A stretch of 24,000 nucleotides of DNA from Acidimicrobiia bacterium (lineage in GTDB: Bacteria; Actinomycetota; Acidimicrobiia; Spongiisociales; Spongiisociaceae), in the NCBI GenBank assembly GCA_041576165.1, contig JBFGLM010000001.1:103391-127390 (forward strand). Direction: 5' to 3'. The translations under genes were made by a program, and so were the position numbers. Each line of letters begins with the position of its first letter. The first letter of the stretch is position 1. Below the pieces are notes generated by a model. That model was not told where the DNA came from and made no database searches. It saw only the letters and a program-made list of their open reading frames with translations. Below are positions 6,703 through 23,777 of this stretch, piece after piece.

Positions 6703-8100
6703 GTGTTCCCGATGGGGTCAGGGGCTGTGATCGCCGACGCTGGAGGCATGCCAACTGTGACTGCATCAATCCGCCGGGCCCAGCGTCTCGCCGAGGCGAC
6801 TCCGGCTTCTCGCAACCGCTACGTCGACTTCCTTCGCGCCGTCTCCATCGTCGCCGTCGTCATCGGCCACTGGCTGATCGCAGCTCCTTACGCGGCCGGC
6901 GGCGAGCTGCGGGGCGTCAACATGCTGGCGCACACCCCGTGGACCCAGTGGCTGACGTGGATCTTCCAGGTCATGCCGGTGTTCTTCGCCGTCGGCGGCT
7001 ACGCCAACGCCGCATCATGGAACGCGTCCCGCCGCGCAGGCCACAGCTACGGCACGTGGCTCGCCGCCCGGCTGCGCCGGCTGACGATCCCCCTGCTGCC
7101 GCTGCTGGCCGTGTGGGCAGTGATCGGCATCGGTGGCGCCGCGTTGGGAATCGATGAGGATCTGATGCGCCTCGGGTCCCAGTCGGCCCTGATCCCCGTT
7201 TGGTTCCTGGCGGTCTACGTGGTCATCGTGGCAATGAGCCCGTGGCTGATCGAGGCCTGGGACCGGTACGCGTGGAGATCGTTCCTGGCCCCGGCCGGGG
7301 CGACGTTCATCGTCGACCGTGCGGTGGCGGGGGGATTGGAACTTCTCGGCTGGGTCAACTTCATCCTGGTGTGGTCGGCAATCCATCAGCTCGGGGTGGC
7401 GTGGCGACGCGGCGCGTTGCCCGCGGCCCCGGCGCGAATCGTGGCAGTGGGTTCGGCCCTCATCGCTGCGTTGTTGGTGACGATTGGCCCCTACCCGGTG
7501 GCGATGGTTGGGGTCCCCGGAGCAGAGGCCTCCAACAACGCTCCCCCCACGCTGGCGCTGATCGTCTTCGGCACCATGCAGATGGCCGCGCTGCTCGCAG
7601 TGGAGCCGGCCGCGCAGCGGATGCTGCAGCGCCCCGCCGCGTGGACGGGCACGATTCTGGTCAATGGGTGGATCATGACGTTGTACCTGTGGCATCTGAC
7701 CGCCATGGTGCTGGCAATCGGTGCCATGCTGCTCGTCGGTGGAATCGGATTGGGTATCGAGCCGTCCTCAGTCGGATGGTGGCTGACCCGACCGTTGTGG
7801 GTCGTCGGCCTGCTGGCGGTGACGCTTCCCTTCCTGGTCCTGTTCGGCCGCTTCGAACGACCCCGGCCGGCCCCGGAGGCGTCACCGCATCCGCTGGTGG
7901 CGCTCGGGGCGGTGGCCGCCGTGAGCGCCGGGCTCGGCCTGCTGGCGGCCCAAGGCGTGCAGGGATCGTTCTTCGGGGTCCGGCTCGAGGCGCTGGCGCT
8001 GCCAGCGGGGGCAGTGCTCGGATTGATCTGGGCCGGTCGGACGAGACGGGCATCCGAGGATGCGTCCACGTCCTCCGAGCGGGCGGCCGCCCACGGCTAA
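6703..8100 (+). CDS. Acyltransferase family 3 integral membrane protein (OafA/NolL-like)
   Basis: 465-aa ORF with roughly 10 hydrophobic helices. N-terminal family signature RNRYVDFLRAVSIVAVVIGHWL. The start is uncertain: GTG 6703, ATG 6712 or ATG 6748. Confidence 0.8.
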   Translation: MFPMGSGAVIADAGGMPTVTASIRRAQRLAEATPASRNRYVDFLRAVSIVAVVIGHWLIAAPYAAGGELRGVNMLAHTPWTQWLTWIFQVMPVFFAVGGYANAASWNASRRAGHSYGTWLAARLRRLTIPLLPLLAVWAVIGIGGAALGIDEDLMRLGSQSALIPVWFLAVYVVIVAMSPWLIEAWDRYAWRSFLAPAGATFIVDRAVAGGLELLGWVNFILVWSAIHQLGVAWRRGALPAAPARIVAVGSALIAALLVTIGPYPVAMVGVPGAEASNNAPPTLALIVFGTMQMAALLAVEPAAQRMLQRPAAWTGTILVNGWIMTLYLWHLTAMVLAIGAMLLVGGIGLGIEPSSVGWWLTRPLWVVGLLAVTLPFLVLFGRFERPRPAPEASPHPLVALGAVAAVSAGLGLLAAQGVQGSFFGVRLEALALPAGAVLGLIWAGRTRRASEDASTSSERAAAHG

Positions 8101-8822
8101 CCGGCCGAGTCGGTGAGCGCCACTCGGATTCGCCGGAAGCCCTTGCCTTTCGACTCGACCTTGGTGATGGCGACCCCTCCCACCTCAGCGGTCGTCTCGA
8201 CGTGGGTGCCACCGTCGGCCTGCCGGTCGAGGCCCACGATGTCGATCACCCGGACCTGGGTGAGCGTAGGCGGTAGCAGGTTCACCTTGGTTCGGATCAG
8301 GCTGGGATCTAGGTCGGCCTCCTCCCGGGGGAGGAACGACACCTCGACCGGGAGCTCCCGGGCGATCGCCTCGTTGAGCGCCTCCTCGAGCGGATCGCGG
8401 TCTTCCGGGTCCCAATCGGGTATCTCGAAATCGAGCCGGCCGTGGCCCGGCTCCATATTCCCGCCGGTCACCGGGCTCTGAAACCGCTCCCAGACGACGC
8501 CGCACAGGGCGTGGAGGCTGGTGTGGGTGCGCATCAGACGGTACCGCCGTTCCCAGTCGATCTCACCCCGCAGTGACGTGCCGGTGGCCGGCAGCGACCC
8601 TTCGACCCAGTGCCAGACGCCGTCCCGGTCCTGAGTGACTCGGGTCACGACCAGTTCGTCGTCCCCGATCCAGAGCGAACCGATGTCGTGCGGCTGGCCG
8701 CCTCCGCCGGGATAGAAGACCGTCCGGTCGAGCAGTATGCGGCCGTCGTCCACGTCGCTGCCCACCACGCTGGCATCCATCGTCGCCGCATAGGCGTCGG
8801 TCGAGTAGATCCGCTCAGTCAT
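8097..8822 (-). CDS. alaX: AlaX-type alanyl-tRNA editing protein (mis-acylated tRNA-Ala hydrolase)
   Basis: 241 aa. N-terminal TVFYPGGGGQPHD, the HxxxH zinc motif (RTHTSLHALCG) and the C-terminal DGGTHV motif typical of the AlaRS editing / threonyl-alanyl SAD domain. Confidence 0.85.
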   Translation of the reverse strand: MTERIYSTDAYAATMDASVVGSDVDDGRILLDRTVFYPGGGGQPHDIGSLWIGDDELVVTRVTQDRDGVWHWVEGSLPATGTSLRGEIDWERRYRLMRTHTSLHALCGVVWERFQSPVTGGNMEPGHGRLDFEIPDWDPEDRDPLEEALNEAIARELPVEVSFLPREEADLDPSLIRTKVNLLPPTLTQVRVIDIVGLDRQADGGTHVETTAEVGGVAITKVESKGKGFRRIRVALTDSAG

Positions 8823-8911: not shown

Positions 8912-10942
8912 ATGCATCCACCCCAACCCAAGAAGGTCCGGACCATCCGCTCGTTGCACGGTGAAGATTTCGTTGACGACTACAGCTGGTTGCGAGACCG
9001 CAACGACCCGGACACCATCGCATACCTCGCTGCCGAGAACGAGTACACAGAGAGGGCCACCGCTCACCTCGAGGATCTTCGCACCCAAATCTTCGCAGAG
9101 ATCAAGACCCGCACTCAGGAAACCGATCTGTCCGCCCCCGCCAAACGCGGCGAATACTGGTATGCCTCCCGCACCGAGGAGGGCAAGCAGTACCCAACGC
9201 ACGTGCGGATGCGGGCCGAACCAGACGGTCCCGAAGAAGTTCTGCTCGACGTCAACGCGCTGGCTGCCGACCACGAATACCTGCGGGTCGGGGTCTTCAG
9301 CGTCTCCCCCGACGGGCAGATGCTCGCCTACTCGACCGACACCGATGGCAGCGAGAAATATACGATGCGGATCAGAGACCTCGCCGGCGGCGCCGATCTG
9401 GACGATGTCCTGGAGAACACGTACTACAGCGCGGCGTGGTCCGCTGATGGCCGCCACCTCTTCTACACGACCATCGACGCCGCGCACCGGCCGGACAAGA
9501 TCTGGCGCCACGCCCTCGGCACCGCGCAGTCGGAAGACGAACTCGTGCTGCATGAGCCGGATGACCGCATGTTCATTCACGTGACGACGAGCCAGGACGA
9601 GCAATATGTGATCGCAGCCGCCGGCAGCCAGACGACGGCCGACGCCCGTTACATTCCCGCAGACCAACCAACGGCCGAGTGGCAATGGGTCCTCCCGCGG
9701 GAGCATGGCGTCGAATACCAGGCAGACCACAGAGAGGGGCGCTGGCTGGTGGTCACGAACGACGATGCGGTCAACGGCCGGCTTCTGTCCGTGTCGGTCG
9801 GCGACCCCGCCGACGTGATCGAGGTCATCCCGCACGACCCGGCCCGCAAGCTCAGCGGAGTAGTGGCCTTCTCCCAGCATGTCATCGTCTTCGGGCGCGG
9901 CGCCGGGCTCACCGCAGTCACAATCCTCGCCGACGGCACCGATCCCCACGACCTCGACTTCGATGAACCGGTGTACACGGTCGGCCCTGAACGCAACCTC
10001 GAGTACGACACAACAACCTTGCGGATCCACTACCAGTCGCTCGTGACGCCTCGCCGCATCATCGACGTGGACCTCACGACCGGCGAGCGGCGGGTCGTGA
10101 AGGAGACGCCCGTGCTCGGCGGTTTCCACTCGTCCGACTACACGTCGTCGCGTGACTGGGCGACGGCCGCCGACGGGACCCGGATCCCGATCTCCATCGT
10201 CCACCGCGCCGATCTGGACCGAACCCGGCCGGTTCCGGTATTGCTCTATGGCTACGGGTCGTACGAGATCCCGGTCGATCCCACCTTCTCGATCCCCCGC
10301 CTGTCGATCCTGGATCGGGGCGTCATGTTCGCGATCGCTCACATCCGGGGTGGAGGCGAGATGGGAAAGCCCTGGTACGAGTCCGGCAAGATGACCAACA
10401 AGGCGAACACCTTCGAGGACTTCATCGCTTGTGCCCGCCATCTGATCGACACCGGCGTCACCACACCTGAACTGCTGGTTGCGCGAGGCGGATCAGCCGG
10501 CGGCTTGCTGATCGGTGCCGTCGCCAACATGGCGCCGGAGCTGTTCAAGGCCTTGATGGCCCAGGTCCCGTTCGTCGACGTCGTCAACACCATGTTGGAC
10601 GAGACCCTGCCGCTGACGGTGATCGAGTGGGAGGAATGGGGCAACCCCAAGATCGAGGAGCAGTACCGGTGGATCCGGGAGTACTCGCCCTACGACAACG
10701 TGGATGGCCGCGAGTACCCTGCGATGCTCGTCACCGCCGGGCTCAACGACCCGCGGGTCAGCTACTGGGAACCCGCCAAATGGGTCGCCAAACTGCGTGA
10801 AGTCGGCACCACACGCGGACCGCTCCTCTTGAAGACCGAGATGGGAGCAGGCCATGCGGGACCCTCCGGCCGCTACGACGCTTGGAAGGACGAAGCGTTC
10901 GATCTGGCCTTCATGCTGGACCAGGTTGGGCTGGCGGGCTGA
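8912..10942 (+). CDS. ptrB: S9A-family serine peptidase, oligopeptidase B (protease II)
   Basis: 676 aa. N-terminal HGEDFVDDYSWLRDRNDP, then a beta-propeller region. The catalytic domain carries GGSAGGLL (Ser), GLNDPRV (Asp) and GAGHAG (His). Confidence 0.9.
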   Translation: MHPPQPKKVRTIRSLHGEDFVDDYSWLRDRNDPDTIAYLAAENEYTERATAHLEDLRTQIFAEIKTRTQETDLSAPAKRGEYWYASRTEEGKQYPTHVRMRAEPDGPEEVLLDVNALAADHEYLRVGVFSVSPDGQMLAYSTDTDGSEKYTMRIRDLAGGADLDDVLENTYYSAAWSADGRHLFYTTIDAAHRPDKIWRHALGTAQSEDELVLHEPDDRMFIHVTTSQDEQYVIAAAGSQTTADARYIPADQPTAEWQWVLPREHGVEYQADHREGRWLVVTNDDAVNGRLLSVSVGDPADVIEVIPHDPARKLSGVVAFSQHVIVFGRGAGLTAVTILADGTDPHDLDFDEPVYTVGPERNLEYDTTTLRIHYQSLVTPRRIIDVDLTTGERRVVKETPVLGGFHSSDYTSSRDWATAADGTRIPISIVHRADLDRTRPVPVLLYGYGSYEIPVDPTFSIPRLSILDRGVMFAIAHIRGGGEMGKPWYESGKMTNKANTFEDFIACARHLIDTGVTTPELLVARGGSAGGLLIGAVANMAPELFKALMAQVPFVDVVNTMLDETLPLTVIEWEEWGNPKIEEQYRWIREYSPYDNVDGREYPAMLVTAGLNDPRVSYWEPAKWVAKLREVGTTRGPLLLKTEMGAGHAGPSGRYDAWKDEAFDLAFMLDQVGLAG

Positions 10943-10967
10943 GCCGGCTCCCCCGGCCCCCGGCCGA

Positions 10968-12548
10968 TCAGCGAATGCCGACCGGCCGCCATCCTGGGTC
11001 GAATGTGGCCCCCCAGCTGTCGGACAAGCGTTGCTCTGCGAGCTGGCTCCAAGCCTGCAATGCACAGAACGGAGCACATTGCGGAGTGTCGCCGTTGCGG
11101 GTGCCCACGTGCACGCAACATTGCATCAGGCGCTCCTCGATCATGTTTGACATGTCCATGAACGGCTTGACCGTGAGCCGCACGATCCGCTCGGCCATCA
11201 GTGTTCGCAGCCGTTTGGCGCCGCCTCCCACCACCGCCCGACCGGCCATTCGCAACATGGCGGGTATTCCGAGGTCGCACGTGCGGCACACGATCTCGAA
11301 CAGGTCTCCGATCGTGGGGTGGGAGAGCGACTGTTGCTCCGACAGCAACCCGAGCAGGGAGACTCGGACCGAATCGCGCAGGTCGTTCATGATGTCGGAA
11401 GACGCGATGGTATTGGACACGAGTCCCAGGTGTTCGCGGAGGCGGTCATGGCCGATTGCGCGTACCAGCGACCGCCACGACCCATCGTCCTGTCTGATCA
11501 TGTAGCCGATAGAGCAGCAATGAGGGTGCGAGCAGGGCAGGGCGGTGAGGTCCTCCCACGTCACCACCCCGGCTGTCTGCGGTCCCAGCCGCCGCAACAC
11601 GCCGCCATGGGTCAGGCGATCGCGGCGATCAATCGGTCCTGAGCGTCCTGAACCAAACTGCGGCTGGATCGACACCCCGCCGACGAAGGGAGTGTCGAGG
11701 GCGAGGCTCACGACGGCGCCGATCTCGTCGTCGTTGACATCTTTTGCTGCCGTCATCGTGAGGGTCGTGAAGACACCGGCTTCGCTGAGCCGTGCTACCG
11801 CTCGCAGCTTCATTGCGCTGAGATCGGCACCCCGATGATGGCGGTACGTGGCCGAGCGGAGGCCGTCGAACTGGAGGTAGACCTCGACCCGGTCCCGTCG
11901 CGCTTCGAGCGCAGCGATCAATGAGTCGTCACGTGCCACCGCCACACCGTTGGTGTTGACCAGGATGCGGGTGATGGGACGAGCGGACAGCTCGTCGAGG
12001 ATGGAGACGAAATCGGGGTGGAGCGTCGGCTCGCCGCCCGAGAGCATCACCACATCGAGATGATCCCCCTCACGCCCGAGGCGCTGGTCCACGTTGGCCA
12101 GCACCTCGCCCGGCGGGACGACACCGCCGGCATGGGGAGCGGAACCGGCGAAACACGTGGGGCAGCGCAGGTTGCACTCACTGATGATGTCCTCGAGCAG
12201 GATGCAGGTGTGCTGGGTCTGCAGCTCGCCCAGACCCTGCCGGTAGGCCAGGGGGATCTGGTCGTAGTTGCCGGGCGTGTCGGGCACATGCAGTTTGGTA
12301 GGGGCGGTCCAGGTCTCCAGATATCTCAAGATCTGCGGATCCTCGTCGTAGAGGGTTTCCACCCGTCCGTGTTCACGACACCCCCGCACCAGCCATACGC
12401 GATCGTCGCGAACCGACAGGTAACCTGACAACCGCTCGACCAGCTCCAGCGGCCGGTCCGGCCACTGGTCGTGGCAATCGGGGCAAAACGCAACGACGTA
12501 GCGGTGGATGAAATCGCCTCGGAGCGGCATCCCTCGGGCCACCGTCAT
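10968..12548 (-). CDS. Multi-cluster radical SAM enzyme with an N-terminal Cys/His ribbon; COG1964/MJ0619 (Tes/GDGT-MAS)-like by recalled motif layout
   Basis: CNLRCPTC (CX3CX2C) is encoded at 12153-12176 and is preceded by QHTC. SGGEPT follows. N-terminal CPDC...GCREHG. C-terminal Cys groups LPCSHPHCCS, CRTC and KPFMD...QCCVH...CAPFC. Start set at ATG 12546-12548, which overlaps the upstream gene's TGA stop (ATGA). Confidence 0.85.
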   Translation of the reverse strand: MTVARGMPLRGDFIHRYVVAFCPDCHDQWPDRPLELVERLSGYLSVRDDRVWLVRGCREHGRVETLYDEDPQILRYLETWTAPTKLHVPDTPGNYDQIPLAYRQGLGELQTQHTCILLEDIISECNLRCPTCFAGSAPHAGGVVPPGEVLANVDQRLGREGDHLDVVMLSGGEPTLHPDFVSILDELSARPITRILVNTNGVAVARDDSLIAALEARRDRVEVYLQFDGLRSATYRHHRGADLSAMKLRAVARLSEAGVFTTLTMTAAKDVNDDEIGAVVSLALDTPFVGGVSIQPQFGSGRSGPIDRRDRLTHGGVLRRLGPQTAGVVTWEDLTALPCSHPHCCSIGYMIRQDDGSWRSLVRAIGHDRLREHLGLVSNTIASSDIMNDLRDSVRVSLLGLLSEQQSLSHPTIGDLFEIVCRTCDLGIPAMLRMAGRAVVGGGAKRLRTLMAERIVRLTVKPFMDMSNMIEERLMQCCVHVGTRNGDTPQCAPFCALQAWSQLAEQRLSDSWGATFDPGWRPVGIR

Positions 12549-12904
12549 GCTCCCGAGAGCGAGGCGACGATCAGCGCCACGCATGTGCCGATCAGCACCA
12601 GCAGCACCCCGAGGCCGAGGAAGAAGCCGGTGAGGAACCTGCCCTGGGCCCGGCGGTAACCCCAAATGGGAATCAGAACGAACAGCGCCAGCGTCACCAG
12701 CCCGCCCAGGGAGGCCGCGCCCCGGGTGGCGCCATCGCTGCCGGTGGCGTTGGCAAGACCGGCGAGGAGGCCGCTGATGAGTGCCCCCCCGAACACCGCA
12801 ACGAGGAACCCCAAAAACCCGGCCGTCTTCGGGTAGCGGGTTACGAAGGATCCGCCGCGGCCGTCGGGACGGCCGGGTCCCGCCGGTGGTGGCTGGTTGG
12901 TCAC
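12545..12904 (-). CDS. Hypothetical 119-aa membrane protein (Pro/Gly-rich N-terminus, three predicted TM helices), translationally coupled on both sides
   Basis: This is the C-terminal part of ORF 12545..13552. GTG 12902-12904 overlaps the TGA stop of the Lgt-like gene (GTGA). Its own TGA 12545-12547 overlaps the radical SAM ATG. Hydrophobic segments FLGFLVAVFGGALISGLLAGL, LGGLVTLALFVLIPIWGY and FLTGFFLGLGVLLVLIGTCVALIVASL. Confidence 0.6.
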   Translation of the reverse strand: MTNQPPPAGPGRPDGRGGSFVTRYPKTAGFLGFLVAVFGGALISGLLAGLANATGSDGATRGAASLGGLVTLALFVLIPIWGYRRAQGRFLTGFFLGLGVLLVLIGTCVALIVASLSGA

Positions 12905-13686
12905 GCGATCCCCGGGACAGCTCGGCCGCGGCGGATCAGGCGCCATGTGATCGATACAACCACCACTGCGAATCCGGTCAGGAGGAACAGCTGGGATCCA
13001 GACATGCCGAACCAGAGGGCCGGGTTGCCCCGGACGAATTCCAGCGCGAAGCGGGCGATGGCATAAGCGCCTACATACATGGGGAAGAGCCGTCCGGCGA
13101 AACGGGCGTCGTCCCGGACTCGCAACAGGAGCACCAGGGCCAGGACGTGGAACCCAATCTCGTAGAGAAACGAGGGATGCATCGGCAGCCCGAGCCGGCA
13201 CTGGGGGCAGAACGGCATCTGCATGGCCTGCTCCGCGCTCACGGCCAGCCCCCAAGGAAGAGAGGTCGTGGTCCCGATCTGCTCGGTGAGGAAACACCCG
13301 ATCCGGCCGATCGCCATACCGAGGGCCACCGCCGGAGCGAAGAAGTCGCCGGTCGAACCACGATATCCGATCAGCTTCTTCGCCACGATCGCCCCTACGT
13401 ACGCGCCGACCAGGCCACCGAGAATGGACCGGCCGGCATGGGTGAAGAGCCCGGTGACAGTCGGTTCGGTCCCTTCGGCCAGGTACCGAATGCCGGTGCC
13501 CACCCGGGCGAACAACCCGCCCCCGACCAGCGCACCGGCCACCACCGTCCATAGTTCATCGCTCCACCGGCCCCGCCGGCGGGCCTCTAGCACGAACACC
13601 ACACCCGCGGCGAGGACCCCGACCCCGATGAAGAACTCGTGGGTCGGGATGCTCAGCCCTCCCACCGTGAAGAGGACGGGGACCAT
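12901..13686 (-). CDS. Divergent Lgt-family (prolipoprotein diacylglyceryl transferase-like) integral membrane protein
   Basis: 261 aa and polytopic. Lgt-like blocks SILGGLVGAYVG, GMAIGRIGCFLTEQIG (compare E. coli GRLGNFINGELWG), HPSFLYEIG and YAIARFALEFVRGNP (the Y-x3-R-x3-E block is conserved). Confidence 0.8.
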   Translation of the reverse strand: MVPVLFTVGGLSIPTHEFFIGVGVLAAGVVFVLEARRRGRWSDELWTVVAGALVGGGLFARVGTGIRYLAEGTEPTVTGLFTHAGRSILGGLVGAYVGAIVAKKLIGYRGSTGDFFAPAVALGMAIGRIGCFLTEQIGTTTSLPWGLAVSAEQAMQMPFCPQCRLGLPMHPSFLYEIGFHVLALVLLLRVRDDARFAGRLFPMYVGAYAIARFALEFVRGNPALWFGMSGSQLFLLTGFAVVVVSITWRLIRRGRAVPGIA

Positions 13687-13745
13687 GGGTTCACGCTAGC
13701 TGCGAACACGCCGGCGCGACCGGCGAGACCCTCACGAAGTTGGCT

Positions 13746-14417
13746 TCAGTCGCGGGCAAGCAGCTGGTCTGCCACTGCGTCCAGGTCGGGCGCGACGATA
13801 TCGGGACGTTCGCTGACGGCGGTGAGATACATACCCGGGCGGGCGACGAACGCTCCCAACGCGCCGGCCCGCATTGCGCCGGTAACGTCCCAGTCGTGCG
13901 CGGCGATCATGCGCAGCTCGCCGATCGGCCGACCCAGCCGCTCGGCCACGGCTCGATACGTCGCAGGGGCGGGCTTGAAAGCTTCCACCATCTCGACGGA
14001 GAACGTCTCATCGAAGAGGTCGGCCAGGCCGGCGTTGGCCATCTGGTCAGCCACCATCGACCCGCTGGAGTTGGTGAGCGTGACCATCGCAAAGCCGGCG
14101 GATCGTATCCGTTCCAGGGCAGCCCGCACCTCCGGGTGCGGTGGCAGGGCGCGCATGCCGGCCACCACCTCCTGAGCAACTTCTTCGCCGAGTTCGATCC
14201 CGGCTCGTCGGGTAACCAGCAGCAACGCGTCGGTCCCCAGCTCGTCGAACGGCCGGTAGGCGCCAGTGAGGGTCGCAACGAGCGAGTTGCGGAGCATTTG
14301 CCCGAACCACACCGGCAACAGATCAACCGTCCCGACTGTTTTTTCAAAGGACGGGCGCAGCGCTCGGAGGTCGAGCAAGGTTTCGTTGACATCGAAGACA
14401 AGAGTTTCTCGGATCAT
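13746..14417 (-). CDS. Type II haloacid dehalogenase-like HAD hydrolase
   Basis: Start re-set to ATG 14417, with AAGGAG 7 nt upstream. HAD motifs FDVNETLLD (nucleophile Asp), VTLTNSS, AFKPAPATY and AAHDWDVTGA. 223 aa. Confidence 0.85.
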   Translation of the reverse strand: MIRETLVFDVNETLLDLRALRPSFEKTVGTVDLLPVWFGQMLRNSLVATLTGAYRPFDELGTDALLLVTRRAGIELGEEVAQEVVAGMRALPPHPEVRAALERIRSAGFAMVTLTNSSGSMVADQMANAGLADLFDETFSVEMVEAFKPAPATYRAVAERLGRPIGELRMIAAHDWDVTGAMRAGALGAFVARPGMYLTAVSERPDIVAPDLDAVADQLLARD

Positions 14418-14496
14418 CCGGGTTCTCCTTGCGGGTGGCTCCAGACGGTCGCTGGCCGCCCGGGCCACGATACGAGTAGCGTGCCGCCCACGAACC

Positions 14497-15234
14497 ATGC
14501 CCGATCTGAGCCTGTTTGTGAACGACCTGGGCGATCCCGTGCCCGCTCTGACCGCCGACGAAATGCGAGAAGTCGACCGCCTCGCCATCGAGGTACACGG
14601 GCCGAGTCTCCTTCAAATGATGGAGAACGCCGGCCGCAACCTCGCCCTGAGCGCACTCGAGCTGTTGGGCAATCGCTGGCGCGATGGGCAACTTCTCGTG
14701 CTGGCTGGGACCGGCGGCAATGGCGGCGGCGGGATCGCCGCCGCCCGGCACCTGGCCAATCGTGGGGCCGACGTGGCGATCGTCGTGACGAACATCGACG
14801 GACTCGAGGAGGTGCCGACGCTGCAGCTGGACATCTTCAGAGGCACCGACGGCCGCACGCTGGGAGGGTCCGAGCTCGCCTCCACCGAACCAGCGCTGGT
14901 GATCGACGCCATAATCGGGTATTCCCTGCGAGGATCTCCCCGAGGGGCCGCACTCGACATGATCGAATTCGTCAACGAAAGTTCGGCGCCGGTGGTGTCC
15001 CTCGACACGCCCTCCGGCCTGGATGTCACCTCCGGCACCTGTCCGGGCGCGGTCGTCACGGCCACCACGACGGTCACCCTCGCATTGCCCAAATGCGGTC
15101 TCACCGCGCCGCAGGCCGGCGACGTCGTATTGGCCGACATAGGGATCCCGCCGATCGTGTACAGGTCGCTCGGGCTGGAGTTCACATCGCCCGTTTTCGA
15201 CCACCGCTATCGAGTCCCGCTGGGCCGCGCATGA
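14497..15234 (+). CDS. nnrE: Stand-alone NAD(P)H-hydrate epimerase (YjeF N-terminal domain only)
   Basis: Start re-set to ATG 14497; the upstream part of ORF 14266.. overlaps the HAD gene. Motifs LVLAGTGGNGGGGIAAARHL, DAIIGYSLRG and SLDTPSGLD. The TGA stop overlaps the nadK ATG (ATGA at 15231-15234). Confidence 0.85.
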   Translation: MPDLSLFVNDLGDPVPALTADEMREVDRLAIEVHGPSLLQMMENAGRNLALSALELLGNRWRDGQLLVLAGTGGNGGGGIAAARHLANRGADVAIVVTNIDGLEEVPTLQLDIFRGTDGRTLGGSELASTEPALVIDAIIGYSLRGSPRGAALDMIEFVNESSAPVVSLDTPSGLDVTSGTCPGAVVTATTTVTLALPKCGLTAPQAGDVVLADIGIPPIVYRSLGLEFTSPVFDHRYRVPLGRA

Positions 15235-15995
15235 CGCCAGCACCCCGCCTCGCCCTCGTCGCCTCACTGGCCCCGGAGGCCCAGCAGGCGGCGGAGCGCC
15301 TGTGCGCGACGTACACATTCGTCGACCGTGACGAAGCGGACGTGATCGTGGCACTCGGCGGAGACGGTTTGATGTTGCGTACCTTGCATTCGACCGTTGA
15401 TCGGCCAGTCCCGGTCTATGGCATGAACCGCGGCTCATTGGGCTGGCTGATGAACCGGTACCGGCCCGATGATTTGATCGAACGGGTGGCTCGGGCCGCG
15501 CCGGTCGTCCTGCATCCGCTCGAGATGGAAGCTGACACCGAGTCCGGCCAGACCCTCCGTGCCTATGCCTTCAATGAGGTGTCGCTCTATCGCCAGACCC
15601 ATCAAAGCGCCAAGCTCTCGATCAAGATCGACGGTGTGGAGCGACTGCCGGAGTTGATGGCCGACGGCCTGGTCGTGTCGACGCCGGCCGGGAGCACCGC
15701 CTACAACCTCTCGGCCGGCGGTCCGATCGTCCCGCTCCAGGCGAATGTGCTCGCGGTCACTCCACTCAGTCCGTTCCGTCCGAGCCGCTGGCCCGGTGCG
15801 TTGATCCGGGACAGCGCCGCCGTGACGGTCGACATTCTGGAAGTCCAGAAACGACCGGTAGGAGCGGTGGCCGATTCAACCGAAGTGCGAAATGTGAGCT
15901 CAGTCCGGATTCGCAAATCCTCCCAGACCGCCCGGCTGCTGTTCGACTCGGAGGATTCACTCGATGACCGGGTGATGGGTCTGCAATTTGGATGA
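15231..15995 (+). CDS. nadK: NAD kinase (short ~254-aa form)
   Basis: Last 254 aa of the 751-aa ORF 13740..15995. Motifs VIVALGGDGLML, NEVSL and DGLVVSTPAGSTAYNLSAGGPIV. Confidence 0.9.
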   Translation: MTPAPRLALVASLAPEAQQAAERLCATYTFVDRDEADVIVALGGDGLMLRTLHSTVDRPVPVYGMNRGSLGWLMNRYRPDDLIERVARAAPVVLHPLEMEADTESGQTLRAYAFNEVSLYRQTHQSAKLSIKIDGVERLPELMADGLVVSTPAGSTAYNLSAGGPIVPLQANVLAVTPLSPFRPSRWPGALIRDSAAVTVDILEVQKRPVGAVADSTEVRNVSSVRIRKSSQTARLLFDSEDSLDDRVMGLQFG

Positions 15996-21475: not shown

Positions 21476-22369
21476 TCAGGTCGCGGCCGGATCTAGCGCG
21501 GCGCCGATCTCACGATCGTTGGCCTCGCTGACCACCGGCATCCTGCGGGCAAAGACCCGGAGCAGAATGAGGCCGCCGATCCCCGCCGCCAGCCCGCTCC
21601 ATTGGCTCCAGGTGAACGGGCCGAGGGTCGCATCACCGTTGACGTCGAGCGACAGGCGGGCGAAGTCGATGACGAACCGCTGGAAGCCGTACCAGGTCAC
21701 CCAGGTGGCAAACAGCTGGCCGTAATGCAGCGGGCGCCCGGACCGGTACAACCAGACGAGAAACACCAACAGCAGGGCTGCGCCCACCAGGTCGTACAAC
21801 GCCGTGTGGTGGTAGACGCCGCACAGGCCGTCGGCCCCCGCAGTCGCACATTCCAGCGCATCGTGCTGAGGGGCGACGTCGTAGCCGGGTTTGATGCCGA
21901 AGCCGAGGAAGAACGTCGTTGGGCCGCCGAGGTGCTCGACGATGGCCAGGTCACCGATTCTCCCGACAACGGTACCGAGCGCCATGCCAAAAGAGGCCAT
22001 GTCCGCGTAGGCGAGGAACGGAAGCTGCAGCCGGCGCAAACGCAGCCATCCCCCCAGAATGCCGCCGGCATAGCCGCCCAGTATGGAATACGAGCCGGCG
22101 GGGTTGAATGCGTCGCCCAATCCAAAACCAGGATCACCGAGGTGGGCGGGCACCGTCAGGAAACGGGCGCCCAGAATGGCACCAATCAGGGCCCACGTCA
22201 GTACCGAGGCAAACTTCTCTGCGTCGTAGCCCCGAGACCGGACATAGCGGGTGGCCAGCCATGCGCCGGCGAGAAAGCCCAGGGCAGCAAACACCCCGTG
22301 CAACGAGAGGCGGATCGGCCCCACCTCGAAGATGGGTATCGGAGGATATGAGATTGCGCCCAGCACCAC
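21476..22369 (-). CDS. lgt: Lgt-family prolipoprotein diacylglyceryl transferase paralog (non-canonical active-site residues)
   Basis: Lgt blocks IPIFEVGPIRLSLHGVFAALGFL, SILGGYAGGILGG, GRIGDLAIVEHLGG, HHTALYDLVG and WYGFQRFVIDFAR. The His/Arg/Gln-rich N-terminal part of ORF 21476..22798 is discarded. GTG 22369 is preferred and ATG 22477 is an alternative; third-position GC drops between them. Confidence 0.8.
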   Translation of the reverse strand: MVLGAISYPPIPIFEVGPIRLSLHGVFAALGFLAGAWLATRYVRSRGYDAEKFASVLTWALIGAILGARFLTVPAHLGDPGFGLGDAFNPAGSYSILGGYAGGILGGWLRLRRLQLPFLAYADMASFGMALGTVVGRIGDLAIVEHLGGPTTFFLGFGIKPGYDVAPQHDALECATAGADGLCGVYHHTALYDLVGAALLLVFLVWLYRSGRPLHYGQLFATWVTWYGFQRFVIDFARLSLDVNGDATLGPFTWSQWSGLAAGIGGLILLRVFARRMPVVSEANDREIGAALDPAAT

Positions 22370-22480
22370 GCTGAGGTTACCGCCCCCGGGCACGCATTGA
22401 ATCAGTCGAATGTCGCGCCATGGACTCTGATTGTCCGGCCCGGGGTACAATGGCGCCGTTCCGCCAACCCCCCGCATCGC

Positions 22481-22936
22481 ATGATCGATCCTTCCAATCA
22501 ACGATACGTCGCGCCGACCCTCGTCCTGGCCGGGCTGTGGACAGCCGCCGTGTGGGGTTCGAGGCTCCGACTGCTGACAGCGGGCGAAGCCGCTAACTGG
22601 CCGACCGTGGCCCGCATCGTCGTTTCTCTGGCTCTTGCGGGCATGCTGCTGCTGCTGGCAGTCGGCGCTAGCAGTCGCCAGAGTTCGGGTGCGCCTGCGA
22701 TCCTGTTCGCGTTCTCCGTCTGGATGGTGATCGTGTGGGTGCCGGCCACGTTGAGCGTGGCGGCGGGCAACGGTTCGTTGTCTTTCAAGGGTGTGCACAC
22801 CGTCCTCGCCATCGTGTCCCTGGCGTTTGGCGCGGCGCTGGCCGGCCAGGCGCGGCGCGAAATGACTTTCAGCCGACCAGCACGTCGATCAGGACCGCCG
22901 CGAACAGCAGTGCCAGGTATACGTTCGAGTAGGTGA
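22481..22936 (+). CDS. Hypothetical four-helix membrane protein
   Basis: ATG at 22481 within ORF 22397..22936. Four hydrophobic segments: TLVLAGLWTAAVWG, IVVSLALAGMLLLLAV, ILFAFSVWMVIVWVPATL and VLAIVSLAFGAALAG. GC-rich third positions hold until the tail, which reads antisense into the 3' end of ctaB. No family recognised. Confidence 0.55.
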   Translation: MIDPSNQRYVAPTLVLAGLWTAAVWGSRLRLLTAGEAANWPTVARIVVSLALAGMLLLLAVGASSRQSSGAPAILFAFSVWMVIVWVPATLSVAAGNGSLSFKGVHTVLAIVSLAFGAALAGQARREMTFSRPARRSGPPRTAVPGIRSSR

Positions 22937-23777
22937 ACAACCGCATGGACCGCTGCGGGTCCTGCATGACCCGGAACGCTTGGAGCACAAACCCGGCTCC
23001 GAGAGCTACCGCTGCCAGCATGTACAACCAGCCGAGGCCGGCGACAGGCACCAAGGCCAGTGAGACCATCCCCACGATGCCCGTATACAGCAGGATGTGG
23101 CGCGTGGTCTGTGTGACTCCGGCCACCACCGGCAGCATGGGCACCCCCGCCGCCGCATAGTCCTCCCGATAGCGCAATGAAAGTGCCCAGAAATGAGGCG
23201 GGGTCCAGTAGAAGACTATGGCGAACATGATCCATGCGGCCAGGGAAAGGGAGCCGGTGACTGCGGCCCAACCCACCAGCGTGGGCGCGGCGCCGGCCGC
23301 ACCTCCGATCACGATGTTCTTGGGAGTTGTCCGCTTCAACGCCAGGGTGTAGACCAGCACATAGAACAACAACGCTGCGGTCGACAGTGCCGCTGCCAGT
23401 AGGTTGGTCGCGGCCCACAGCCAGGCGAAACCAGCGAGGCCAAGGACGATTCCGAACCGAAGCGCTGCAGCCGGTTCCACCCGATGGCGGGGCAGCGTCC
23501 GCTGCGAAGTCCGGCGCATCAGCCGGTCGATGTCGCGATCGACGTAGTTGTTGATGGCGTTGGCTCCGCCCGCCGACAGGGTGCCGCCGATGAGCGTGGC
23601 TACAACAAGCCAGGTACCTGGCCACCGGCCGGCGGCCAGGACCATCGACGGTACGGTGGTGATGAGAAGCAGCTCGATGATCCGCGGCTTCATCAACTCC
23701 ACATATGCCGCAGCGATCGCTCGCCCCCCTCGAATCGGAGACGCGGGGTCGGTGATCGTCACGCCGGGATCCGCCAT
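22869..23777 (-). CDS. ctaB: Protoheme IX farnesyltransferase (heme O synthase)
   Basis: 302 aa. YVELMKPRIIELLLITTVPSM, GGANAINNYVDRDIDRLMRRT (UbiA-type Asp-rich motif), and YWTPPHFWALSL plus DYAAAGVPMLPV. Confidence 0.93.
   Translation of the reverse strand: MADPGVTITDPASPIRGGRAIAAAYVELMKPRIIELLLITTVPSMVLAAGRWPGTWLVVATLIGGTLSAGGANAINNYVDRDIDRLMRRTSQRTLPRHRVEPAAALRFGIVLGLAGFAWLWAATNLLAAALSTAALLFYVLVYTLALKRTTPKNIVIGGAAGAAPTLVGWAAVTGSLSLAAWIMFAIVFYWTPPHFWALSLRYREDYAAAGVPMLPVVAGVTQTTRHILLYTGIVGMVSLALVPVAGLGWLYMLAAVALGAGFVLQAFRVMQDPQRSMRLFTYSNVYLALLFAAVLIDVLVG

Follow-up and report, generated by a model that had tools for sequence, protein, structure and literature searches.

The radical SAM (S-adenosylmethionine) enzyme encoded in a 24,000-nucleotide (nt) stretch of an Acidimicrobiia bacterium (assembly GCA_041576165.1, contig JBFGLM010000001.1, positions 103,391 to 127,390; this whole stretch is called the window here) is the proposed catalytic core of a membrane cassette with three translationally coupled parts, the other two being an Lgt paralogue and a small protein with three transmembrane (TM) helices. 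The enzyme is a real homologue, at the superfamily level, of GDGT-MAS/Tes, the archaeal tetraether and macrocyclic archaeol synthase, and sequence comparison places it in a separate, strongly conserved clade and not among the Tes orthologues. The linkage of a Tes-like radical SAM enzyme to Lgt is the main new result, and the near-obligate, coupled association with the Lgt paralogue and the small protein, which lies outside the span covered by a first-pass annotation of this DNA, is the strongest evidence obtained. Among the papers available to the search, none described an Lgt-radical SAM linkage, the small proteins, or a clade of this kind without the N-terminal cluster. The cassette consists of the following genes (lengths in amino acids, aa):

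10968..12548, minus strand: radical SAM enzyme of the Tes/GDGT-MAS (COG1964) superfamily, Lgt-linked clade; 526 aa; Pfam PF04055 and PF23545
12545..12946, minus strand: small membrane protein A; 133 aa from its ATG (alternative GTG at 12904); its stop overlaps the radical SAM start (ATGA)
12901..13686, minus strand: Lgt-family paralogue with an altered active site; 261 aa; Pfam LGT, E 3.8e-33

Locus counts refer throughout to the 80 best radical SAM loci in species-representative genomes. An Lgt-like gene adjoins the radical SAM gene in 74 of these 80 (by tblastn) and in the window, where it lies upstream on the same strand; in five of the six loci without one, the radical SAM gene is less than 300 nt from a contig end. 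The small gene A stands between the two in the window, and the 3' end of the Lgt-like gene overlaps its start. Two look-ups in the reverse direction, from Lgt-like homologues, returned the order Lgt (257-260 aa), small protein A (110-114 aa), radical SAM (509-525 aa) and small protein B (96-104 aa), with 4-nt overlaps, and a third gave the Lgt-like gene and small protein A in the same order up to the point where the contig ends, which is consistent. The cassette also occurs in cultured species, namely in M. goodii (beside ppx-DUF501-divIC-eno) and in M. fortuitum and other rapid-growing mycobacteria. In M. goodii (CP012150 2889773-2901341, locus L094) it is flanked on the other side by an ArsR-type regulator and a P-type ATPase. 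Besides the Lgt-like gene and small gene A, no window gene was conserved with the radical SAM gene across the 80 loci.

The Lgt paralogue combines a typical fold with an atypical active site. Its AlphaFold model (mean pLDDT, the predicted local distance difference test, 87) has the predicted seven-TM fold of Lgt and matches a single PDB entry, E. coli Lgt (5azb, E 1.1e-7, TM score 0.60-0.65), while the score against the TIGR00544 Lgt equivalog model is 73.5 bits versus a cut-off of 118.9. Residues are given in E. coli numbering (reference Lgt from NC_000913) and were tabulated over 74 radical SAM-linked homologues. Six residues are reported as essential in E. coli Lgt (Y26, H103, R143, N146, G154 and R239; PMC13251419, 2026), of which R143, G154 and R239 are kept in the paralogue and Y26, H103 and N146 are replaced; the same study describes a second M. 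smegmatis homologue, MSMEG_5408, that carries Y26H and N146C and whose activity is 'presumed low', with no mention of a radical SAM neighbour. The window protein has Y26H, H103L and N146C, and the linked homologues share these changes (His at Y26 in 72/74, Leu at H103 in 71/74) and keep R143, E151, G154, Y235, R239 and E243. Two Cys features stand out:

13294..13296, minus strand: Cys131 (the N146C position), within GRIGCFLTEQIG; invariant (75/75)
13198..13209, minus strand: extra CPQC loop

An extra CxxC loop of this kind is found in about 75% of the linked paralogues. The Y26H/N146C signature, the synteny in M. goodii and the M. smegmatis gene numbering together suggest that the radical SAM-linked paralogue corresponds to MSMEG_5408. 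MSMEG_5406, which may be a neighbour in M. smegmatis and conceivably a member of the cassette, is reported to be about 9-fold down under zinc chelation (PMC7174638). The window holds a second divergent Lgt-family open reading frame (ORF; 21476..22798, minus strand), directly downstream of the heme o synthase gene ctaB (22869..23777, minus strand). Its Pfam LGT match (E 1.4e-32) covers residues 156-413, it scores 70.3 bits versus the cut-off of 118.9, and it carries Y26H, H103L, N146D and E243D; its first ~150 codons appear non-coding, which makes a later start probable. The window has no Lgt paralogue that reaches the status of a canonical Lgt, as this holds for neither of the two.

Small protein A is conserved in layout and barely in sequence. 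The frame in the window has a G+C content at third codon positions (GC3) of 0.83, the same 133-aa product is called in two public assemblies, and the protein has a Pro-rich N-terminus followed by three TM helices. The third helix bears the following residue:

12581..12583, minus strand: Cys122 of small protein A, in a G-x-C motif, 21 residues past the RRAQGR loop and 11 from the C-terminus

A positional equivalent is present in ~55 of 69 loci, with the same succession of Pro-rich N-terminus, three TM helices, basic loop and Cys. Gly occupies position -2 of this Cys in 36/38 sequences, at a fixed spacing, and the Cys lies a median of 21 residues past the last Arg/Lys and ~10 residues from the C-terminus. 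Taken as sequence features, the basic n-region, hydrophobic core and Cys at the predicted outer boundary give the third helix the architecture of a lipoprotein signal peptide with a non-canonical box. Searches by tblastn with small protein A returned weak matches only (E > 0.2), so that its conservation is demonstrated by position, topology and motif, and neither small protein A nor small protein B belongs to a Pfam or NCBIfam family. The one other recurrent neighbour is small protein B, a membrane protein of 90-110 aa, which is encoded directly downstream of the radical SAM gene in 24/80 loci and in M. goodii (e.g., L091:6701-7015, L093:6656-6946, L094:6566-6826), and its invariant motifs are DPLRLC and ARRAGLxxSKCxLxDTRLV. 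The place that it occupies in those loci is taken in the window by oligopeptidase B (8912..10942, plus strand), which ends 25 nt from the radical SAM stop.

The radical SAM frame itself is well supported (GC3 of 0.77 for the maximal ORF, in a window of ~65% G+C). An alternative TTG start at 12665 would give a longer ORF; the ATG is favoured because homologues start at about residue 6 of the ATG form and because the stop of the upstream ORF overlaps this ATG. The protein is a true member of the radical SAM superfamily, with the CX3CX2C cluster motif, the GGE motif and a Pfam Radical_SAM (PF04055) match of 70.5 bits (E 2.5e-19; gathering cut-off 29.5), and Zn_ribbon_HMPTM also scores above the Pfam gathering score (E 1.2e-8). 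The motifs, with coordinates confirmed by translation, are:

12369..12485, minus strand: rubredoxin-like metal ribbon C22-x2-C25-x31-C57-x2-H60; invariant in 119 homologues
12204..12257, minus strand: segment IPLAYRQGLGELQTQHTC, in place of the GDGT-MAS N-terminal [4Fe-4S] motif GCPYDCGLCPNH in MAFFT alignments
12153..12176, minus strand: radical SAM cluster motif C125-x3-C129-x2-C132 (C125-NLR-C129-PT-C132); invariant in 119 homologues
12024..12041, minus strand: SGGEPT SAM-binding (GGE) motif, residues 170-175; invariant
11514..11534, minus strand: C339-S-H341-P-H343-C344-C345; from conservation in homologues and alignment to GDGT-MAS
11277..11288, minus strand: C421-x2-C424, Cys pair specific to the clade; helical region modelled with low confidence
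11154..11168, minus strand: K461-PFMD465 block; from alignment to GDGT-MAS
11064..11120, minus strand: C477-C478-x-H480 ... C491-x3-C495; from conservation and alignment to GDGT-MAS

Further motifs are H113-T-C115 and VYLQFDG (residues 223-229). Across the 119 homologues, C22, C25, C57, H60, C115, C125, C129, C132, C339, C344, C424, C477, C478, C491 and C495 are invariant, as are H87, H113, H341, H343 and H480, with slightly less strict conservation of C421 (97%) and C345 (81%). All of the motifs listed in the first-pass annotation were recovered by translation and by this conservation, far beyond chance, and its count of at least nine extra C-terminal Cys agrees with the nine in the translation (339, 344, 345, 421, 424, 477, 478, 491 and 495). 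It had placed all of these Cys groups after the KPFMD block, which is correct for QCCVH and CAPFC and incorrect for PCSHPHCCS and CRTC, both of which precede it.

GDGT-MAS is the closest structurally characterized relative, both in sequence and in fold. It is the top PDB sequence match (7tol, E 3.7e-30), well ahead of all others, and a profile built from 47 family members extends the match to residues 35-503 (E 1.1e-39). The AlphaFold model (pLDDT 73, predicted TM score, pTM, 0.81, weak over residues 377-439 where pLDDT < 50) aligns by Foldseek with 7tom/7tol over the full length (>550 aligned columns, E 3.6e-25, TM score 0.66-0.70, ~20% identity in the structural alignment) and reproduces the four-domain fold of GDGT-MAS; the second-best match, SkfB, a maturase of ribosomally synthesized and post-translationally modified peptides (RiPPs), covers the radical SAM core only (E 8e-8). 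The sequence search and the structure prediction with Foldseek that the first-pass annotation had called for therefore agree on GDGT-MAS as the only strong PDB relative, and its proposal of a Tes/GDGT-MAS family member stands for the superfamily and the full-length fold and falls for orthology. The NCBIfam Tes equivalog (NF045702) gives 150.9 bits versus a cut-off of 450 and aligns with residues 20-343 only, and the best-scoring NCBIfam model, the TrsS equivalog (NF045646), gives 198.7 bits versus a cut-off of 490.

The ligand pattern was mapped on a MAFFT alignment of GDGT-MAS, the radical SAM family and 14 more distant representatives, since the HMMER alignment of the C-terminal half to 7tol misplaced the H-x-H-C motif; the GDGT-MAS sequence was rebuilt from HMMER alignments, and its numbering reproduces the published C9/C12/C33/H36 and C73/C77/C80. 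In GDGT-MAS, C9/C12/C33/H36 form a rubredoxin-like Fe site, C73, C77, C80 and a His bind the N-terminal [4Fe-4S] cluster, and Met439 is the labile ligand of the C-terminal auxiliary [4Fe-4S] cluster (PMC9433317). The first of these sites is kept: the CPDC(x31)C-x2-H ribbon, which the first-pass annotation had regarded as a possible metal site, aligns residue for residue (C22/C25/C57/H60) with the Fe site of GDGT-MAS. All four ligands of the N-terminal cluster are replaced, with I98, Q104, G107 and Q110 at the aligned positions, and H113 and C115 persist within the IPLAYRQGLGELQTQHTC segment. At the C-terminal end, H341/H343/C344 correspond to H335/H337/C338 of GDGT-MAS, Lys461 stands at the position of Met439, and C344, C477, C478 and C495, candidate ligands of a C-terminal cluster, align with C338, C455, C456 and C470. 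Among the additional Cys, C115 and C339 are common to most bacterial relatives and not found in GDGT-MAS, and C421, C424 and C491 set the clade apart, C491 being specific to its core family. The loss of the N-terminal ligands is shared by the whole clade and by the sister lineages P0122 and P0124, and the motif is intact in TrsS/Tes-like representatives. The sub-threshold score, the lost N-terminal ligands, the replacement of Met439 by Lys and the extra invariant Cys are the grounds on which this protein is considered not to be a Tes orthologue.

The clade is large and widespread. A word-indexed search matched >3,400 proteins, the best 120 of which are 64-80% identical and mostly named 'radical SAM protein', and the 80 best loci (59-68% identity) span Actinomycetota, Acidobacteriota, Gemmatimonadota and Chloroflexota. 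Hosts of these loci include Nocardia, Mycobacterium/Mycolicibacterium, Nonomuraea, Agromyces, Janibacter and Acidimicrobiia, together with Gemmatimonadota, Blastocatellia, Thermoanaerobaculia, Chloroflexota and Dormibacterota; the nearest relatives of the window come from metagenome-assembled genomes of Acidimicrobiia. Clustering at 50% identity collapses the family to one representative (P0121) with two sisters at 46% and 42%, the next relative being at ~36%, and none of the ten representatives scanned reaches the Tes or TrsS cut-off. A neighbour-joining tree, which can be read as a rough ordering only given that several representatives are fragmentary or frameshifted, groups the Lgt-linked proteins, which have Lys at the Met439 position in common, a residue also found there in a few representatives outside this group.

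The Lgt link extends to more distant relatives (36-42% identity). Representatives P0124 (42%), P0153 (36%) and P0165 (37%) have an adjacent Lgt-like gene with N146C and small membrane proteins with a Cys in the C-terminal TM helix. In P0262 the N-terminal cluster motif is intact, and its locus (L096:1235-5776) encodes, in this order, the radical SAM protein, an Lgt-like protein (GRIGCLFNGCCWG), a methyltransferase of the ICMT/PEMT family and, in tandem, four paralogues (108-121 aa) of small protein A. Tandem gene copies are typical of substrates and not of enzyme subunits. The small membrane proteins of more distant Lgt-linked variants (L085:5696-6031 and L089:4024-4978) begin with a zinc ribbon (CPxC...CxxC) where others have the Pro-rich segment, and they keep a Cys in the last TM helix.

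The gene context suggests a new pathway that modifies lipids or lipoproteins, and not ordinary tetraether synthesis. The function that we tentatively favour, at somewhat less than an even chance, is Tes-type radical chemistry on a diacylglyceryl unit derived from phosphatidylglycerol (PG), with the Lgt paralogue handling this unit and the small protein accepting it. The Lgt paralogue would bind PG through its conserved Arg pair and transfer the diacylglyceryl unit to a thiol, most likely that of the G-x-C Cys at the outer end of the third TM helix of small protein A. The Tes-like enzyme would then use a 5'-deoxyadenosyl radical to take a hydrogen from an unactivated carbon of the acyl tail of this PG-derived lipid and could make a new C-C (or C-S) bond by means of its C-terminal cluster, yielding a cross-linked or macrocyclic lipid or lipoprotein anchor. 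Judged from the alignment, the enzyme retains the Fe site, the SAM cluster and the Cys that align with the C-terminal auxiliary cluster, has lost the N-terminal auxiliary cluster and has gained extra Cys; Tes itself forms its carbon-sulfur intermediate on the C-terminal auxiliary cluster. By analogy, the chemistry on lipid tails would be of the same type as that of GDGT-MAS. What this model infers is the substrate, the product and the sequence of steps between them. Small protein A is considered the most likely acceptor or substrate on account of its fixed Cys, its helix resembling a signal peptide, the occurrence of tandem copies and the presence of an ICMT-like neighbour. PG is proposed as the lipid because Tes was crystallized with an archaeal PG analogue and binds ester lipids (PMC9433317) and because the substrates of Tes and Mss have phosphoglycerol head groups, Mss being proposed to use PG-bearing lipids (PMC9433317; PMC13274423); PG is also the canonical Lgt donor (PMC11741404). 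A more specific pathway, in which the Lgt paralogue diacylglycerylates the small protein Cys and the radical SAM enzyme bonds the acyl tails into a macrocyclic or membrane-spanning, protein-anchored lipid, is one that we hold to be doubtful.

Several observations weigh against the favoured function. The Lgt paralogue, having lost Y26, H103 and N146, may not transfer diacylglycerol; the G-x-C motif is not a canonical lipobox, and its -1 residue is often bulky; about 10 of the 69 loci have no small ORF between the Lgt-like gene and the radical SAM gene; and small protein B has no credible counterpart in the window, where searches with 24 homologues and two distant sequences gave a best match (E 0.017) that falls inside the second Lgt-like ORF. 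The outer leaflet is the site of Lgt chemistry, whereas a radical SAM enzyme must be cytoplasmic, and the model offers no geometry for the hand-over. The structural model is of low confidence over residues 377-439, and the function proposed for the clade draws on homology, fold, ligand pattern, linkage and partner conservation.

Among the alternatives, the enzyme could be a free-standing synthase of tetraether or membrane-spanning lipids (of the diabolic-acid or brGDGT, i.e., branched glycerol dialkyl glycerol tetraether, type) acting on bulk phospholipid tails, with the Lgt paralogue and small proteins presenting or flipping the lipids. Such a role would fit GDGT-MAS being the only close structural relative, the conservation of the Cys aligned with its C-terminal cluster and the presence of the clade in Acidobacteriota (Blastocatellia, Thermoanaerobaculia), and it would be in keeping with the proposal that bacterial Tes homologues make brGDGTs (PMC8941075) and with the use of PG-type lipids by Tes and Mss (PMC13274423). 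The cassette context nevertheless argues against it as the whole story, since it would not account for an invariant Cys in the Lgt paralogue, a fixed one in the small protein or the tandem small-protein genes, and the Tes score lies far below the cut-off with the N-terminal cluster lost. The hosts, moreover, are mostly aerobic Actinomycetota (Nocardia, Mycolicibacterium, Nonomuraea), which are not known to have membrane-spanning lipids. The acidobacterial homologues highlighted in PMC8941075 are 40-42% identical to archaeal Tes, and the present enzyme is ~20% identical to GDGT-MAS. Overall, we regard this role as unlikely. It is quite unlikely that the enzyme is instead a protein-directed, RiPP-like maturase that installs a Cys thioether or side-chain cross-link in the small protein, with lipidation by Lgt as separate tailoring. 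The poor conservation of the small proteins save for one Cys motif, their presence in up to four tandem copies, the zinc-ribbon N-termini of distant variants and the match to SkfB would all suit a maturase, and Lys in place of the labile Met could free a coordination site for a substrate thiolate; yet the fold, including the C-terminal domain, is that of the lipid enzyme over its whole length, scans with Pfam and NCBIfam found no SPASM/twitch or RiPP-recognition domain in the radical SAM protein, and a RiPP maturase would be unusual in keeping 60-68% identity across phyla. The target Cys, judging by the positive-inside rule, would also be buried in a TM helix close to the outer leaflet, where a cytoplasmic enzyme could hardly reach it.

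The abundance of conserved Cys allows a further explanation, in which the proteins form a membrane thiol or Fe-S complex for metal binding or redox relay, with the Lgt fold as a scaffold and no lipid tailoring. All parts of the cassette contain invariant Cys (C131 and the CxxC of the Lgt-like protein, the G-x-C of small protein A and the LRLC/SKC of small protein B), and essential catalytic residues of E. coli Lgt are missing from the paralogue (PMC13251419). However, the paralogue strictly retains the Arg pair for PG binding together with other signature residues of Lgt, the radical SAM protein keeps its SAM-binding motifs and Tes-like C-terminal domain, and no conserved redox or metal-handling genes were found near the radical SAM gene in related loci, making such a complex very unlikely. 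Finally, some JGI annotations name homologues '7,8-dihydro-6-hydroxymethylpterin dimethyltransferase' (HMPTM), a label that, like the Pfam name Zn_ribbon_HMPTM, goes back to the original assignment of MJ0619. Pterin methylation is next to untenable here, because Lloyd et al. failed to reproduce that activity and showed MJ0619 to be GDGT-MAS (PMC9433317), and because methanopterin or pterin genes are absent from the window and do not recur across related loci.

Bacterial relatives of Tes have been suggested as the source of the brGDGT lipids that are used as palaeoclimate proxies. A branch that lacks one Fe-S cluster and is wired to an atypical Lgt and small Cys proteins means that homology to Tes cannot by itself be read as tetraether synthesis, and this Lgt-linked branch may redefine the nature of the large group of 'bacterial Tes homologues'. 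A role is also suggested for MSMEG_5408, the second Lgt of rapid-growing mycobacteria, until now regarded as a weak duplicate. If the lipoprotein remodelling pathway outlined above were true, a radical SAM enzyme would for the first time be seen to remodel a lipoprotein anchor, and the second Lgt that mycobacteria and many soil bacteria carry without explanation would gain a function.

The gene next upstream of the cassette was considered as a further member:

13746..14588, minus strand: HAD type II hydrolase, 59 nt upstream of the Lgt-like gene

In the window this gene may share a transcript with the cassette; it was rejected as a member, as it stands beside the radical SAM gene in 0/80 related loci. 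A scan of 10800..14800 for promoters and terminators found no more sites than in shuffled sequence and is thus uninformative on the limits of the operon. Elsewhere in the window, a YjeF_N NAD(P)H-hydrate epimerase ORF (14266..15234, plus strand) overlaps the divergent HAD gene, its real start probably lying further downstream, and is followed in another frame by a NAD-kinase-like ORF (~15150..15995, plus strand), forming a pair for NAD repair and NAD kinase. A stand-alone AlaXM-type alanyl-tRNA editing protein (8097..8822, minus strand; 256.7 bits versus a cut-off of 300) is encoded between an acyltransferase-3 gene and oligopeptidase B.

Compared with known systems, the enzyme is structurally most similar to GDGT-MAS/Tes (MJ0619; 7TOL, 7TOM), with which it shares the fold, the rubredoxin-like site, the CX3CX2C and GGE motifs and, in the C-terminal domain, H-x-H-C, CC-x-H and PFC, and from which it differs in the extra conserved Cys (115, 339, 421, 424 and 491), in belonging to a bacterium with ester lipids and in the near-obligate link of its gene to an Lgt paralogue and small Cys proteins. 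TrsS, an uncharacterized radical SAM (seleno)protein, belongs to the same superfamily and gives the top NCBIfam score, but the enzyme falls far under the cut-off of 490, and the window contains an Lgt-like gene and no methyltransferase, whereas in P0152, a TrsS-like relative, the N-terminal cluster motif is intact and the gene adjoins a methyltransferase, with no Lgt gene nearby. PMC8941075 reports 456 bacterial Tes homologues. Those of Koribacter, Solibacter and Edaphobacter, proposed there for brGDGT synthesis, are likewise bacterial members of the superfamily with a putative function, but they are closer to archaeal Tes (32-42% identity) than the present clade is, and no Lgt linkage was reported for them. 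Mss of Thermotoga and Thermoanaerobacter (PMC13159169) is also a bacterial radical SAM enzyme and couples fatty-acid tails; it is of another radical SAM family, so far from anaerobes only. On the side of the partner protein, canonical Lgt (5AZB) has the same fold and the same R143/E151/G154/Y235/R239/E243 as the paralogue and differs in the replaced Y26, H103 and N146 and in the TIGR00544 score, which for the paralogue is below the cut-off, and the second mycobacterial homologue, MSMEG_5408, shares both Y26H and N146C with the paralogue.

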